Below are positions 44,469 to 53,777 of a DNA stretch of 64,000 nucleotides, one piece after another. The stretch comes from Candidatus Bathyarchaeia archaeon. GTDB lineage: Archaea > Thermoproteota > Bathyarchaeia > Bathyarchaeales > DTEX01. A program made the position numbers and the translations under genes. The notes under the pieces are model-generated. The model was not told the DNA's origin and did not search any database. It saw only the letters and a list, made by a program, of their open reading frames with translations. The stretch spans positions 43,540-107,539 of the forward strand of contig JAWBXB010000005.1 of NCBI GenBank assembly GCA_038868075.1. Direction: 5' to 3'. The stretch's first letter is position 1. Each line of letters begins with the position of its first letter.

Positions 44469-45428
44469 ATGGAGGGCGCTATTGTTCAGCCGATTACGCC
44501 GGAAATAAGAAGCCTATATTATAAGCAGGGTTATAGGCTTGCTGGTAAGCATCTCCACAGCGCTGTCAAGATATGCCAGTGGACTAAGGAAAGCTTAAGG
44601 TCGGGCAGAGTCTGCTATAAGGAGCTCTGGTATCCGCCAGTCCAAAGCCATAGATGCATGCAGATGACACCCTACATAGGATGCAACTGCCACTGCCTCT
44701 ACTGCTGGAGAATACACTCCGGGGATAGAGAGGGATTAATCTGGAGGGAGTTTCCCCTAAACCTGGATGAATTCGATGAACCAGCCGAAATAATAGATGA
44801 ACTAATTGAAAAGAGGAAAGAACTGCTCTCTGGATGGAGGGGGAACCCGAGAGTTGATAAAAGGAAGCTTGAGGAGGCTCTTAGGCCAACAATGATGACC
44901 ATGAGCTTAACTGGTGAGCCGACGCTTTATCCGAGAATTTCGGAGCTTATAGCTGAGGCTGGCAAGAGGGATATGATAACATTCCTAGTGACTAATGGAA
45001 CATTACCAGAGGTATTAGAGAGAATGAATCCGCTACCGTTCCAGCTTTATGTAAGCGTTCCAGCGCCGGATAAAAACACATACATTGGAGTTGTTAGACC
45101 CCTCATTAAGGATGCTTGGGAACGTTTAAATAAAACATTAGAGTTGCTTCCAAGTCTAGGGACAAGAAGAGTTCTAAGATTCACGATGATTAAGGGCTGG
45201 AATACGCTAAATATTGAGGGATACGCGAAAATCGTTGAAAAATCTAAACCAGACTTTATTGAGGTTAAAGCATATGAGTGGGTTGGGCAAAGTAGGGAGA
45301 GGTTGCCAAGGGGAGCTATGCCTTATATGGAGGATGTGGAGGAGTTCTCAATTAAATTAGCGAACTTAACAGGATATAGTATTAAAGGGAAAAATGAGCC
45401 GAGCGGCGCCGTTCTTCTCTCAGCATGA
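44469..45428 (+). CDS. taw1: tRNA 4-demethylwyosine synthase Taw1 (radical SAM, TYW1 homolog)
   Basis: HSAVKICQWTKESL...CYK and the radical-SAM cluster CNCHCLYCWR. The size and layout match Taw1. Confidence 0.85.
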   Translation: MEGAIVQPITPEIRSLYYKQGYRLAGKHLHSAVKICQWTKESLRSGRVCYKELWYPPVQSHRCMQMTPYIGCNCHCLYCWRIHSGDREGLIWREFPLNLDEFDEPAEIIDELIEKRKELLSGWRGNPRVDKRKLEEALRPTMMTMSLTGEPTLYPRISELIAEAGKRDMITFLVTNGTLPEVLERMNPLPFQLYVSVPAPDKNTYIGVVRPLIKDAWERLNKTLELLPSLGTRRVLRFTMIKGWNTLNIEGYAKIVEKSKPDFIEVKAYEWVGQSRERLPRGAMPYMEDVEEFSIKLANLTGYSIKGKNEPSGAVLLSA

Positions 45429-46050: not shown

Positions 46051-47106
46051 ATGTTTAAACGTGAAGCAATGCTTTATGAGAAGCTGCAAAACAATAGGGT
46101 TAGATGTAATCTTTGCGCACGTAGGTGTCTAATATCTGATGGTGGATTCGGTTTCTGTGGTGTCAGAAAGAATGAGAATGGAAATCTCTATTCGCTTAAT
46201 TACGCTAAAGCATGCGCAGCTAATGTTGATCCAATAGGTAAGAAACCTCTTTCACACTTCCATCCAGGAGCTTTAGTAATGTCAATAGCGACTGTTGGAT
46301 GTAACTTCCGATGTCAGTTCTGCGATAATTGGAGCATAAGTCAGGAAAGAGATATCATTGGCAAAGATTTTCCACCCGAAGATGTTATTAAATCTACAAT
46401 TGATTATGGATGCCATGGGATAAGCTATACCTATACTGAGCCAACGATATTTTTTGAGTACGCATATGATACTGCAGTTTTAGCTCATAAGCATGGATTA
46501 TTTAATACATTTGTCACAAACGGATATATGACCATTGAAGCTGTTGAAACTATTGCTCCATACTTGGATGCTGCAACGGTTGATTTTAAGGGTGGAGGAG
46601 ACCCTGAATTCTATAAGAAGTTTTCCATGGTTCCATTGGTTGAGCCAATATTTGAAGCTCTCAAGGAGATGAGGAGGAGGAATATACATATAGAAGTGAC
46701 GAATCTTGTTGTGCCGAAGATTGGTGATTCGCTTGAAAAAATAAAGGAACTCGCATTATGGATTAAAGAGAATTTAGGTGAGGATACTCCATTCCATTTG
46801 CTGAGGTTCCATCCAGACTATAAGCTAACTGATATACCATCCACTGAGATCAGAACTCTTGAGAAAGCTTACGAGACTGCTAAGGAGACTGGATTAAACT
46901 ATGTTTATTTGGGAAATGTTCCGGGACACAGATATGAAAACACATATTGTCCGAACTGTCAAGAGCTATTGATAAGGAGATACGGATTTGATATAATAAA
47001 ATGGAACTTAACGGCCGATATGCGATGCCCAAACTGTGGAAGACAAATCGCTATAAAGGGAAAATTCCATAGGACTGGGCTTTCATTTCCGTATTCCGTC
47101 ATATAA
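46051..47106 (+). CDS. AmmeMemoRadiSam-system radical SAM enzyme (PFL-activase-like)
   Basis: VRCNLCARRCLISDGGFGFCGVRKN, the radical-SAM CNFRCQFCDNW motif, and a C-terminal CPNC...CPNCG pair. Confidence 0.8.
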   Translation: MFKREAMLYEKLQNNRVRCNLCARRCLISDGGFGFCGVRKNENGNLYSLNYAKACAANVDPIGKKPLSHFHPGALVMSIATVGCNFRCQFCDNWSISQERDIIGKDFPPEDVIKSTIDYGCHGISYTYTEPTIFFEYAYDTAVLAHKHGLFNTFVTNGYMTIEAVETIAPYLDAATVDFKGGGDPEFYKKFSMVPLVEPIFEALKEMRRRNIHIEVTNLVVPKIGDSLEKIKELALWIKENLGEDTPFHLLRFHPDYKLTDIPSTEIRTLEKAYETAKETGLNYVYLGNVPGHRYENTYCPNCQELLIRRYGFDIIKWNLTADMRCPNCGRQIAIKGKFHRTGLSFPYSVI

Positions 47107-48418: not shown

Positions 48419-51130
48419 ATGTGGCGCATCTTTAGGAGAGACGCAATAGAAGTCCTATATAATGAAAGGGTTAGGTCTAGCCTAGCAAGATACTTCGTTG
48501 TCATGAATGATGAGAAGCCAGCAAAATTTATGATAGCAAAGAGGATTCCGGCGGAGTTTAATGTAGATGAGCCGCTTGAAAGTTTATGGGCTAAGCATGA
48601 GAAGCTAACTGAGGATTTCTATAAAATTCAGAGCGAGATAGATTCTGGAAAAATGAAGTTAGAAGATATGGATGTTCCAGAGAGTTCCTATCTAGACCTA
48701 AAAATAGCCATAGCAAAAAGAATTCTTGAGCGCTGCCACTTCTGCAATAGGCGGTGTGGGGTAAATCGATTAAGGGGCGAATTAGGCTACTGCAGATGTG
48801 GGACTCAAATAATGGTTTCATCAATCTTTGAGCATATAGGCGAGGAGCCGGAACTAGTCCCCTCTGGAACAATATTCACCATGGGATGCACAATAAGATG
48901 CCTACACTGCCAGAACTGGACTATATGTATGACGGGAGATAGTCTAGTTTTGCTCTCTGATGGCACATTAACTGAAATCGCTAAAATTTTCAACGAATAT
49001 GCTACCGGTGAACCGAAGGAAACTTGCAGAAGCCTTTGTGCACTAACAAACTTAAACGTTTTCTCAATAAATGAGGAAGCAAAAGTTATAGTAGATCTTT
49101 GTAACGGTGTGTCACGAAGGTTAGCTGATGACCTTATAGAGATAGTGACGTGGACTGGAAGAAAAATCGTAGTCACATCGAATCACTTACTATACACCTG
49201 CCACAATGGACTTATTATTCCAGTTCCAGCCAAAAAATTGAGGGAAGGTGATTATATAGCCGCTCTCAAGTCTATACCCGAAATTAAGGGATTCACAAAA
49301 ATAAATATTGGGAACCCTACCCCTAAAGCTTTTTATAGAGTTGCTCCACCCATCACTATTACATCAGAGCTATGCCGAGTTATTGGATACTTACTTGGTG
49401 ATGGGTACCTCTATAAATACAAGAGGAAGAACCACTATAACATAGTATTTACCAACACTAATCAATCCCTAATTGAGGATTATGTTAACTGCTTTAAGAA
49501 GGCCTTCGGTTTAACACCAAAAGTGTTGGAGTATAAAGGAATTTTTCGAGCCGTAGTTAGATCTGCTGACGTCTTTAATTTTCTAAGCGATGTTGCTCCG
49601 CACCTGTTATCTCGCTCGAAATTTAGGGAGGTACCGCCGATAATTATGCGAGCTGACAATAATATGGTTTCATCATTTTTAAGGGGGTTCTTTGATTGCG
49701 AGGCTACAGTCCATAGTAAAAATAGGGAAATAGTGTTGTATTCAGCGAGTGAGAGATTGCTATTACAGATGCAAATTTTATTATGCCGCTATGGAATAAT
49801 ATCGCAACTTCATCCAATATTCCGTAAGAGAAATGAGCGGGTTGAAAGAACATTTAAGCTCTCAATTACAGGCGAAAATGTGGGTCGCTATAAGATTTTT
49901 GTAGGCTTCTCGTCTCCTGAAAAGATTGAGAAGCTGGAGAAAGTGCTGAAGATAAAAGCTTCCCCTAGGCAGCATGTGGATGTTATTCCAAATATTGGTG
50001 ATCTGTTAAAAGATATAAGAAGTAGATTACGACTTACACAGCGTGACGTAAGATTAGTTTTAAAAGGATATGGTTACTTGGAGTCTAAAAATAGACCATT
50101 TCCAAGATTTAAGCTCGAAAAAGTGGTGTCATTCTTTGGGGATAGATTGAGAAATATTGAGATGTTATCCCAGAAACTTGCAGAGTCCACGTGGAAAGTG
50201 ATAAGGGAAGGTATGAGAATGCTAAATATTTCTCAGCGGGAGTTAGCTGAGATGCTTAATGTTTCCCGTAGCCTAATAAGGTATTACATGAATATGGGCA
50301 GTAATGATTTACACGTTAAAAAATTTTTGAATAAAGTTTCTGCTGCAATAAGACTCCTATGCTCAGAAATTCTATCTGACAAAATATTGCTAGAGGATCT
50401 ATTTAGGCTGAAGATGTTAATAAACGCTGATATTTTCTGGGATAAAGTGGAGAGAACATCAAAGTTAACTGGCGAAACGTTTGTTTTTGACATTAGAGTA
50501 CAGAATACAAATAGGTTTATTGCAAATGGTCTGCTCGTACATAACAGTCAGTGGTTTGAGAGTGGGGAGGTTTATTCTCCTAGGCGTTTGGCTTTGGCTG
50601 TTGAGGGGTTGCGTAGGAGCGGCTGTAGAAATGCCAATCTTGTTGGCGGCGAACCTACTCCTTGGCTTGAGCAGTGGCTTGAGACTTTCAAGCACGTGAA
50701 TGTTAATATTCCGGTTGTCTGGAACTCAAACTCCTATTATAGTGAGGAAACTGCTAAGCTGCTTGCCGGCTTCGTTGACGTTTATCTGCTCGACTTCAAG
50801 TATGGTCCCTTTGACTGCGCCAAGAGGATTTCGGATGCACCCAATTATTGGGATGTCTGCGCAAGGAATCACCTCTATGGCAATAAGTACGGTGAACTTA
50901 TAATACGGGTTCTTGTCTTGCCAAACCACCTAGAATGCTGCACTAAGCATATTCTCAAGTGGATTGCCGATAACCTCGGAAGAAACACTAGGACCAATGT
51001 TATGTTCCAGTATAGGCCTGAGTGGAGAGCCTATGAGGTGCCTGAGCTACGTAGGAGATTAACCGCTAAGGAGATGGAGCGGGCTATAGAGTTAGCTAAG
51101 GAGGTTGGATTAACAAACTTCATAACATAA
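48419..51130 (+). CDS. PflX-like (COG1313) radical SAM enzyme interrupted by an intein
   Basis: Extein residues 1-169 plus 710-903. They carry CHFCNRRCGVNR...GYCRCG, the radical-SAM motif GCTIRCLHCQNWTI | SQWFESG, and a C-terminal TIM-barrel region. Confidence 0.85.
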   Translation: MWRIFRRDAIEVLYNERVRSSLARYFVVMNDEKPAKFMIAKRIPAEFNVDEPLESLWAKHEKLTEDFYKIQSEIDSGKMKLEDMDVPESSYLDLKIAIAKRILERCHFCNRRCGVNRLRGELGYCRCGTQIMVSSIFEHIGEEPELVPSGTIFTMGCTIRCLHCQNWTICMTGDSLVLLSDGTLTEIAKIFNEYATGEPKETCRSLCALTNLNVFSINEEAKVIVDLCNGVSRRLADDLIEIVTWTGRKIVVTSNHLLYTCHNGLIIPVPAKKLREGDYIAALKSIPEIKGFTKINIGNPTPKAFYRVAPPITITSELCRVIGYLLGDGYLYKYKRKNHYNIVFTNTNQSLIEDYVNCFKKAFGLTPKVLEYKGIFRAVVRSADVFNFLSDVAPHLLSRSKFREVPPIIMRADNNMVSSFLRGFFDCEATVHSKNREIVLYSASERLLLQMQILLCRYGIISQLHPIFRKRNERVERTFKLSITGENVGRYKIFVGFSSPEKIEKLEKVLKIKASPRQHVDVIPNIGDLLKDIRSRLRLTQRDVRLVLKGYGYLESKNRPFPRFKLEKVVSFFGDRLRNIEMLSQKLAESTWKVIREGMRMLNISQRELAEMLNVSRSLIRYYMNMGSNDLHVKKFLNKVSAAIRLLCSEILSDKILLEDLFRLKMLINADIFWDKVERTSKLTGETFVFDIRVQNTNRFIANGLLVHNSQWFESGEVYSPRRLALAVEGLRRSGCRNANLVGGEPTPWLEQWLETFKHVNVNIPVVWNSNSYYSEETAKLLAGFVDVYLLDFKYGPFDCAKRISDAPNYWDVCARNHLYGNKYGELIIRVLVLPNHLECCTKHILKWIADNLGRNTRTNVMFQYRPEWRAYEVPELRRRLTAKEMERAIELAKEVGLTNFIT
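48926..50545 (+). mobile_element. Intein (540 aa) with a LAGLIDADG homing endonuclease domain
   Basis: Block A CMTGDSLVLLSDG. Block B VVTSNHLLY. LAGLIDADG motifs VIGYLLGDGYLY and FLRGFFDCEATVH. Block G FIANGLLVHN followed by the +1 Ser. Length is 1620 nt and it is in frame. Confidence 0.88.
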
Positions 51131-52193: not shown

Positions 52194-53777
52194 TTACTTA
52201 ATTATTGGTTTTAGTATTCGTACCGGTAGAGGCGTCTCAACTTTTAGACGCCCACTTCTAAAATCGTTTATCATAGCCTTCAAATCGTAATTATAGTCCT
52301 TTTCACATACGCTCATGTATTTTAGAGTTTGCTTAACTCCATAAGAGATCACCATTTTTAAGCCCTTCCGCACCATTCTACTCTTTATACTTCTTTCACT
52401 CCAATCTCTAAATATGTTTTCTATCCAGTCAAAATTATGTTTCCAACATTTAAAGAGTAACTCAGTATGTCTAGGCGTTAAATCATTTAATGTAAATGAG
52501 TTGACTCTATCTTTTAAGCTACCCATTGATACGAAAAATAATGGGACAATTATGCTCTTAAAGGGACGTAGCTTCTCAATAAGTGAGATGGTTAGCTCCA
52601 CGTCTTTTTCGGTTTCTCCTGGGAGACCTAGTATTAACGTTGCACATGGAACCCAATTGTTCTCGCTTAAAATTTCAAAGGCTCTAATAACAATGTCAGG
52701 CCAATCCTCTGGTGAATAAGGCTTACACTTACCCTTCATATGCATATCCATGATCCTGGGGCTACCTGTTTCAATACCTGTTTGTCCACTTAACCAATTT
52801 CTGCTATCAACATTCAATATATTAGATATTTCTTCAACTAAATCTGGCGCAGTCACAGCTGATACTAGTGCGAAATGGCTTATTCCAACACTCTTAACCC
52901 CAGGATAATTCTTAACGCTCCTGAAGAGATTCACCACAGCCTCTTTATTGATCTCCAATCCTCTAGCCTTATATCTTAGTATGTCTTCAGCGTGGAGTAA
53001 TGGTTGCCTACCAGCTCTAAGATTAACCTCAACCTCCTTAAGGATATGGTCTATTGGGAGACATCTGAAACGCTGCAATGTTGGAACGCAGAAATCGCAT
53101 CCACGCCCACATCCTCTTGCAACCTCAATTATTCCATCTATTGTTGCACCCCTAATAACTGGTATCTCATCTACCTCAACAACTTCGCCGTAGACCACTC
53201 CTGGAAGATTATCACCATTAATTGCCTTCTCAAATAGCGGACCAGCTACCTTCTCACCCTCACCTATAACAACAGTGTCTATTCCAAGATCCCTTCTAAT
53301 ACTCTCATCCTCTAATTGCCAAGCACCAGCCCCTCCAACAATTATTTTGGGCTTATACTTCTTAACTAATGGATGATTTAAGATTTCCCTAAACTTAATT
53401 GCCATGTAAGCTTCTCCACCAAAGATCTCCGTGAATGTTGTTGTCGCTGGACCTATTCCCAACGGATCATTTTCAGTTATTCCTAAGGCCTTTGTTTCTG
53501 GACCGATAACCTTGTGTAATCGCTCTGGATGAGCGACAACAACATCTTCTCTCCTGAAGCCGTAATCTAATAGGGCAGCCTCAATTTTCCTAGTTCCATT
53601 TGGCGCTACAACAGCTGTTCCATCGCTATTAGCTTCAACTGGTGGGCAAAATAATCTAAAATAAATGCTATCTGGAACTAAACCCTTAGGTACACATGCG
53701 CTGAAACCAAGAAATATTGCACCACCATACTCGCTCATTAATGTCCTATCAGCCGTTAGAACTATTGAATAGCCCAT
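52194..53777 (-). CDS. B12-binding-domain radical SAM protein
   Basis: An N-terminal Rossmann-like domain followed by the radical-SAM cluster ARGCGRGCDFCVP. 527 aa. Confidence 0.75.
   Translation of the reverse strand: MGYSIVLTADRTLMSEYGGAIFLGFSACVPKGLVPDSIYFRLFCPPVEANSDGTAVVAPNGTRKIEAALLDYGFRREDVVVAHPERLHKVIGPETKALGITENDPLGIGPATTTFTEIFGGEAYMAIKFREILNHPLVKKYKPKIIVGGAGAWQLEDESIRRDLGIDTVVIGEGEKVAGPLFEKAINGDNLPGVVYGEVVEVDEIPVIRGATIDGIIEVARGCGRGCDFCVPTLQRFRCLPIDHILKEVEVNLRAGRQPLLHAEDILRYKARGLEINKEAVVNLFRSVKNYPGVKSVGISHFALVSAVTAPDLVEEISNILNVDSRNWLSGQTGIETGSPRIMDMHMKGKCKPYSPEDWPDIVIRAFEILSENNWVPCATLILGLPGETEKDVELTISLIEKLRPFKSIIVPLFFVSMGSLKDRVNSFTLNDLTPRHTELLFKCWKHNFDWIENIFRDWSERSIKSRMVRKGLKMVISYGVKQTLKYMSVCEKDYNYDLKAMINDFRSGRLKVETPLPVRILKPIIK

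Follow-up and report, generated by a model that had tools for sequence, protein, structure and literature searches.

In the main text of a large survey of archaeal inteins, hosts are dominated by proteins of replication, repair and nucleotide metabolism (PMC4760082). The described inteins that best match the one treated here are archaeal VMA inteins (TliVMA, 7qss and 7qsu; PhoVMA, 7qst; Beyer et al. 2022, PMC8966425), which have the same order of Hint domain, two-motif LAGLIDADG endonuclease and accessory domain before the C-terminal part of Hint. We describe an intein of this architecture in the gene of a radical SAM enzyme, in a 64,000-nucleotide (nt) stretch of DNA from a Candidatus Bathyarchaeia archaeon (GenBank assembly GCA_038868075.1, contig JAWBXB010000005.1, positions 43,540 to 107,539). 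This whole stretch is termed the window in what follows, all coordinates refer to it, and its allele of the gene is abbreviated WIN.

TliVMA gives the best match both in sequence (Protein Data Bank (PDB) entries 7qsu, E 2.6e-19, and 7qss, E 1.3e-18) and in fold (7qss, E 2e-25; target-normalised template modelling (TM) score 0.79). In the TliVMA intein and in PI-TkoII an accessory domain in the same position is helix-turn-helix (HTH)-like and modulates DNA cleavage (PMC8966425). The VMA inteins differ in host and site, the P-loop of the V-ATPase A subunit, and are ~15-17% identical to the present intein, whose accessory domain, with 157 amino acids (aa) and nine helices, is much larger and clearly matches Pfam HTH_3. 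PI-PfuI (1dq3) and PI-TkoII (2cw7), also archaeal LAGLIDADG inteins of solved structure with extra DNA-binding domains, are matched by Foldseek at E 4e-20 and 2e-17, but their hosts are ribonucleotide reductase and DNA polymerase, respectively, and their extra domains are of another fold or module.

The closest non-allelic relatives that we found in genomes are HTH_3-containing inteins of MCM (CDC21) and of a type II/IV secretion ATPase, at 24-33% identity over intein residues 1-540. They share the order Hint, LAGLIDADG, HTH_3, C-terminal Hint and match a profile of our accessory domain; they differ in host and insertion site, most of them match the first HTH unit only, and their sources are DPANN, Micrarchaeota, Thermococci and further archaea, not Bathyarchaeia. 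Tetraether lipid synthase Tes (NCBIfam NF045703) is a radical SAM enzyme that hosts an intein, but it belongs to an unrelated radical SAM family and is interrupted at another site; our protein matches that model in the endonuclease region only, with 48.6 bits against a cutoff of 1700. Finally, intein-free 363-aa proteins of Bathyarchaeia (e.g. P0001) represent the same gene at its spliced length and in the same neighbourhood, with up to 94% identity, but they are without the 1620-nt insert and encode Ser170 by TCN, not AGY.

We place at about 0.9 the probability that the insert is a canonical class-1 intein with a two-motif monomeric LAGLIDADG endonuclease and an Xre-type HTH accessory domain, and that it has homed recently. 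The parts of the gene are as follows.

48419..48925, +: N-extein, aa 1-169 of the 363-aa radical SAM protein, aligning without gaps to intein-free homologs
48775..48925, +: putative upstream co-conversion tract, positions 357-507 of the spliced coding sequence (CDS), where WIN groups with intein-bearing alleles and not with its otherwise closest (empty) relative
48887..48910, +: cluster motif CTIRCLHC (CX3CX2C), in the N-extein
48926..50545, +: complete intein, an in-frame insert of 1620 nt (540 aa)
48926..49300, +: N-terminal part of the Hint domain, intein aa 1-125, block A beginning with Cys1
49169..49195, +: block B, VVTSNHLLY, with T84, N86 and H87 invariant in 13 homologs
49361..49960, +: LAGLIDADG homing endonuclease domain, intein aa 146-345, with Pfam LAGLIDADG_3 in two stretches and fold matches to I-DmoI and PI-PfuI
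49379..49414, +: LAGLIDADG motif 1, VIGYLLGDGYLY, with predicted catalytic Asp159 (GAT, 49400..49402)
49676..49714, +: LAGLIDADG motif 2, FLRGFFDCEATVH, with predicted catalytic Glu259 (GAG, 49700..49702)
49961..50431, +: accessory domain, intein aa 346-502 (157 aa), nine helices
50015..50083, +: divergent HTH-like first unit, IRSRLRLTQRDVRLVLKGYGYLE, upstream of the second
50222..50287, +: Xre-type HTH, second unit, LNISQRELAEMLNVSRSLIRYY
50432..50545, +: C-terminal portion of Hint, intein aa 503-540
50474..50530, +: block F, D522 invariant
50531..50545, +: block G, LLVHN, with H539 and N540 invariant
50546..51130, +: C-extein with stop codon, residues 170-363 after splicing
50546..50548, +: Ser+1 codon, AGT
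50546..50608, +: putative downstream co-conversion tract, CDS 508-570, including the AGY Ser+1 codon

The open reading frame at 48419..51130 (+) encodes 903 aa, and its 2712-nt frame is uninterrupted. The intein is translated as CMTGDSLVLLSDG ... VVTSNHLLY ... VIGYLLGDGYLY ... FLRGFFDCEATVH ... LNISQRELAEMLNVSRSLIRYY ... FIANGLLVHN, after which the C-extein begins with SQWFESG. The intein has a GC content of 37.7%; the values for N-extein, C-extein and whole window are 42.2%, 47.0% and 40.3%, respectively. No second intein was found when one was looked for in the window.

The initial annotation of this DNA, made from the letters and their translations, had called a 1620-nt LAGLIDADG intein; the strings it quoted are all in place, and the N-terminal, endonuclease and C-terminal parts each match intein profiles. 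Pfam finds Intein_splicing (E 1.5e-18) and, in two stretches, LAGLIDADG_3 (E 8.6e-20). NCBIfam finds intein_Nterm (E 5.7e-11) and intein_Cterm, the latter above its cutoff of 15.6 bits both with the full protein (E 1e-3, 19.2 bits) and with the insert alone (E 3.8e-3, 17.5 bits), besides partial matches to many intein-containing archaeal proteins. The Xre-like HTH that had been proposed between the endonuclease core and block F is likewise real, scoring above the HTH_3 cutoff, and intein-free homologs align seamlessly across I169|S170, as had been expected of them, leaving a spliced product of 363 aa.

An AlphaFold model of the intein, built on 13 homologs, has a predicted local distance difference test (pLDDT) value of 87 and a predicted TM score (pTM) of 0.85. 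Its top Foldseek matches are the TliVMA intein, PI-PfuI, the PhoVMA intein, PI-TkoII, PI-SceI, several mini-inteins and I-DmoI; in the Hint fold it superposes on the mini-inteins 6rpq, 5o9i and 4o1s with a root-mean-square deviation (rmsd) of 1.5-2.4 over ~120 columns. The sequence marks of a class-1 intein are present: Cys1, the block B T-x-x-H as T84-S-N86-H87, a His-Asn end and an invariant Ser+1. Residues C1, T84, N86, H87, D522, H539 and N540 do not vary in 13 homologous inteins that are 39-90% identical. In the proposed pathway the 903-aa precursor would be translated first; Cys1 would perform the N-S acyl shift and Ser+1 would attack; Asn540, assisted by His539, would cyclise; and the 363-aa enzyme would be freed with the native ...CQNWTI-SQW....

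Excision of the 1620 nt yields a radical SAM protein with 2783 homologs at E <= 1e-5, the top 120 of which are nearly all exactly 363 aa long and from Bathyarchaeia (best identity 94%). An alignment of 11 sequences is gapless, with C157, C161, C164, Q165, N166, W167, I169, S170, Q171 and W172 invariant. The Pfam Radical_SAM model (PF04055, cutoff 29.5 bits) scores 36.7 bits on the C-extein only and 52.6 bits on the spliced protein, where it spans residues 152-308 across the junction; with this score and the CX3CX2C motif, the protein belongs in the radical SAM superfamily. The intein enters between Ile169 and Ser170, five residues past the third cluster Cys; the distance of six residues given at first holds for Ser+1, not for the insertion itself.

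The host had also been described as PflX-like. The radical SAM part of that name stands on PF04055; the PflX-like part is found in JGI homolog names ('putative pyruvate formate lyase activating enzyme') and not in the curated glycyl-radical activase models (PflA TIGR02493, PFLE_PFLC TIGR02494, NrdG TIGR02491/TIGR02495), all of which score far under their NCBIfam cutoffs (at best NrdG2, 41.9 bits against 131; PflA, 18.8 against 232). No PDB sequence matched a profile of the spliced extein at E <= 0.01. Since the activase models lie so far under their cutoffs and no PDB sequence relative appeared, we use the label activase-like radical SAM enzyme, the group to which the host belongs, and assign no substrate. 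A single-sequence PDB search returned antibody matches only, judged to be chance. The motif CDNWSISQ, cited from an intein-free gene at 46051..47106, is present there, but the gene encodes an AmmeMemoRadiSam-system enzyme (TIGR04337, E 2.6e-96) and is no close paralog. As for the claim that radical SAM activases lie outside the classical archaeal intein hosts, no radical SAM host appears in the main text of the archaeal survey (PMC4760082), but NF045703 shows that such a host is not unprecedented.

Exteins of occupied alleles are under strong purifying selection, with ratios of nonsynonymous to synonymous substitution (dN/dS) of 0.02-0.10; these suggest that the host gene is still functional and, indirectly, that splicing works. 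They also support the view in the initial annotation that splicing would be obligatory for enzyme activity.

Two further observations concern the host and its surroundings. The N-extein has a second group of cysteines, C106, C109, C113, C125 and C127 (48734..48799, aa 106-127), invariant in the 11-sequence alignment; these point to a further metal or Fe-S site, located upstream of the motif for radical SAM. In addition, ~10 kb of this DNA holds four genes for radical SAM proteins: a TYW1-like one with a Wyosine_form domain (44469..45428), the AmmeMemoRadiSam-system gene (46051..47106), the intein host (48419..51130) and a gene for a 527-aa radical SAM protein with a weak match to a B12-binding domain (52194..53777).

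The empty site is precise. The closest intein-free homolog, P0001, is encoded in loci L001-L003, whose gene order is that of the window: nitroreductase (-), radical SAM (+), phosphofructokinase (-), radical SAM (-), M24 peptidase (+). BLAST colinearity between WIN and empty L001 stops at 48926 and restarts at 50549, and L001 reads ...CACTGCCAGAACTGGACTATA|TCCCAGTGGTTTGAGAGT... at the site. The spliced WIN CDS and the empty allele are each 1092 nt long and 90.6% identical.

Separately, the 3' 400 nt of the host gene (50721..51095) are 96-97% identical to empty L001, and the surrounding DNA 70-92%. This patch may reflect a separate recent exchange between the two lineages, or local constraint.

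A search with the full precursor yielded 13 further clusters (P0121-P0133, 49-91% identity). In 12 of them the intein stands between I169 and S170; P0128 is N-terminally partial and has the C-terminal junction only. Seven species-representative genomes carry the intein, comprising Bathyarchaeota or Bathyarchaeia metagenome-assembled genomes (MAGs) and one 'Hecatellales' MAG. Most occupied alleles have an intein-free allele as their closest relative by extein, and in a neighbour-joining extein tree drawn without support values the occupied alleles fall into ~10 separate groups among the empty ones.

Three kinds of trace bear on how this distribution arose. The first is a discordance in synonymous divergence (dS): for the pairs WIN-L004 and WIN-L005, dS is 0.20-0.47 in the intein and 0.95-2.8 in the extein. 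Three of the four intein-bearing pairs have an extein dS of 0.47-0.71 close to the junction (within ~150 nt on its upstream side and ~60 nt on its downstream side), and distal values run from 1.3 to saturation; between WIN and empty L001 the proximal/distal trend is reversed. The second is mosaic flanks. Where occupied L004 and empty L001 differ, WIN matches L001 at 109 of 149 informative sites overall, but within the ~210 nt of CDS 357-570 it matches L004 at 19 of 30 (permutation p ~0.002).

The third is the codon of Ser+1, surveyed at 50546..50548 of the window and in loci L001-L010 and L083-L161. It is AGY in all eight occupied alleles and TCN in all 76 empty ones, while the neighbouring Ser168 has both codon classes among empty alleles. 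Because a change between TCN and AGY takes two substitutions, we treat this codon as a marker that travels with the intein; and as even very distant empty alleles have TCN, TCN is taken to be ancestral and AGY to move with the intein. The product of a precise deletion, an empty site with AGY, does not occur among the 76. TCN at Ser170 was also considered as a mark of endonuclease resistance, and was rejected as the main explanation, its presence in all 76 empty alleles extending to very distant ones.

Taken together, the dS discordance, the mosaic flanks and the AGY/TCN marker indicate a recent transfer of the intein between lineages, later than the divergence of their host genes and with a short flank carried along. 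In the mechanism that we propose, the excised intein would recognise the uninterrupted ...AACTGGACNATH|TCNCARTGG... of intein-free alleles and cut it, the HTH accessory domain would add DNA contacts at the homing site, and repair would copy the intein from the occupied allele together with ~150 nt upstream and ~60 nt downstream.

In the endonuclease of WIN each of the two LAGLIDADG helices has a predicted catalytic acidic residue, D159 in GDG and E259 in FDCEA, the latter aligned with the acidic residue in the second motif of the TliVMA intein. Foldseek aligns the domain to I-DmoI with TM ~0.74 (target-normalised) and rmsd ~3.2, as expected of a pseudo-dimeric alpha-beta-beta-alpha-beta-beta-alpha fold, and the secondary structure of the model agrees. 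Both residues are intact in WIN, P0121, P0123, P0124, P0125, P0129, P0130 and P0132 (Asp in P0132). Across the Hint, endonuclease and accessory domains dN/dS is 0.03-0.26 (endonuclease 0.11-0.23; accessory 0.15-0.26).

The accessory domain (aa 346-502) is modelled as nine helices with pLDDT 90. Against a Pfam HTH_3 cutoff of 23 bits, its second unit scores 26.4 in isolation and 24.1 within the intein; the 157-aa segment scores 22.8, just under. The first HTH-like unit has no direct Pfam match. HTH_3 is found in 13 of 13 intein homologs (best E 2e-7). Foldseek with the whole accessory-domain model gave no significant match, and its local matches to MBF1/EDF1, HipB, SinR, Aca1 and C.Esp1396I are non-significant by E-value. 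Many non-allelic archaeal inteins match a profile of this module, in whole or in its first unit; in those that were checked, from MCM and a type II/IV secretion ATPase, the Pfam HTH_3 match falls on the stretch homologous to the first unit. The domain is thus of an already-described module type, shared with the MCM and ATPase inteins; here it is of unusual size and probably duplicated.

The module-bearing inteins (L011-L082) come from Micrarchaeota, Woesearchaeota, Nanoarchaeota, Thermococci and other archaea; examples are L011:1966-6813, L017:1671-7028, L055:1540-4596 and L042:1576-5967. Some MCM genes hold two or three inteins with an HTH module.

Several points count against a canonical, recently homed intein. 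The dS values are simple Nei-Gojobori counts on short segments, with several extein values saturated; in the pair WIN-L009 proximal dS hardly drops; conservation of the protein is highest in the junction region, and this could bias site patterns; and the neighbour-joining tree has no bootstrap values. Of 15 alleles (partial P0128 and the 14 that have both junctions), 6 are without the catalytic Glu: P0122, P0126, P0127, P0131 and P0133 have Lys in its place, and L006, apparently the counterpart of partial P0128, has Val; D159 is also Asn or Gly in three of these. Homing is therefore not active everywhere. Observed here are the anatomy, the precision of the empty site, the patchiness of the distribution and the population-genetic traces of recent transfer; the chemistry of splicing, the cutting of DNA and what the accessory domain does are inferred. 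The Glu-replaced inteins remain full length and under purifying selection, and the loss of Glu is in keeping with the invasion, fixation and decay through which such elements usually cycle.

Another reading is co-option of the intein as a regulator, which we consider unlikely. Splicing might be gated by redox state or by assembly or supply of the Fe-S cluster, with the intein controlling maturation of the enzyme: Cys1, six residues from cluster residue C164, would serve as fourth [4Fe-4S] ligand or form a disulfide with a cluster Cys until released. Otherwise the Lys and Val lineages might retain the intein not for homing but because its HTH domain would bind DNA, the excised protein having lost its nuclease activity. 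Other inteins are known to splice conditionally (work cited in PMC4760082), and full-length inteins with conserved HTH units persist even where Glu is Lys or Val, with accessory dN/dS at 0.15-0.26. Most homologs of the enzyme, however, manage without an intein, and purifying selection on endonuclease and accessory domain is equally expected of a recently active selfish element.

We think it quite improbable that the intein is old, vertically inherited and now immobile, with its patchiness due to repeated losses and not to homing gains. Pairwise identities of extein and intein are correlated (r = 0.86), the catalytic Glu has been lost in several lineages, and the intein is rare, at 13 clusters against 2783 homologs, all of which would suit such a history. 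It is opposed by intein dS values 3-6 times under those of the host gene in the same genome pairs, by the mosaic flanks, by the purifying selection on the endonuclease (dN/dS 0.11-0.23), and by the 76 empty alleles, among which precise deletion would leave an AGY allele and none is seen.

That the insert is a decayed, non-splicing remnant in a pseudogene or an inactive fusion protein is very hard to credit. In its favour, splicing is here a prediction and public records label the product as no more than a homing endonuclease; against it, the 2712-nt frame is unbroken, the splicing residues are all invariant across 39-90% identity, and extein dN/dS of 0.02-0.10 in occupied alleles is unexpected for a dead gene.

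A search of the literature for an intein in this radical SAM enzyme found no paper, its apparent matches being unrelated. By that search the gene is a new host; the intein type itself is already known. NCBI lists the exact protein (MEM2341023.1 and others) simply as 'LAGLIDADG family homing endonuclease'; the BA1 homolog bears the mistaken name 'Replication factor C small subunit' (annotation records compared: P0138, P0129, P0139). The 90%-cluster representative of the WIN protein is a 169-aa 'partial pyruvate formate lyase-activating protein', exactly the length of the N-extein.

For thermostable splicing or meganuclease tools, this intein and its large HTH accessory domain offer candidates. 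The alleles also form an unusually clean natural data set on homing in uncultured archaea, with occupied and empty syntenic alleles, a measurable co-conversion tract and a perfect AGY/TCN marker. The host range of inteins gains an anaerobic metabolic Fe-S enzyme, which automatic annotation conceals, and this concealment can distort metabolic reconstructions of Bathyarchaeia.

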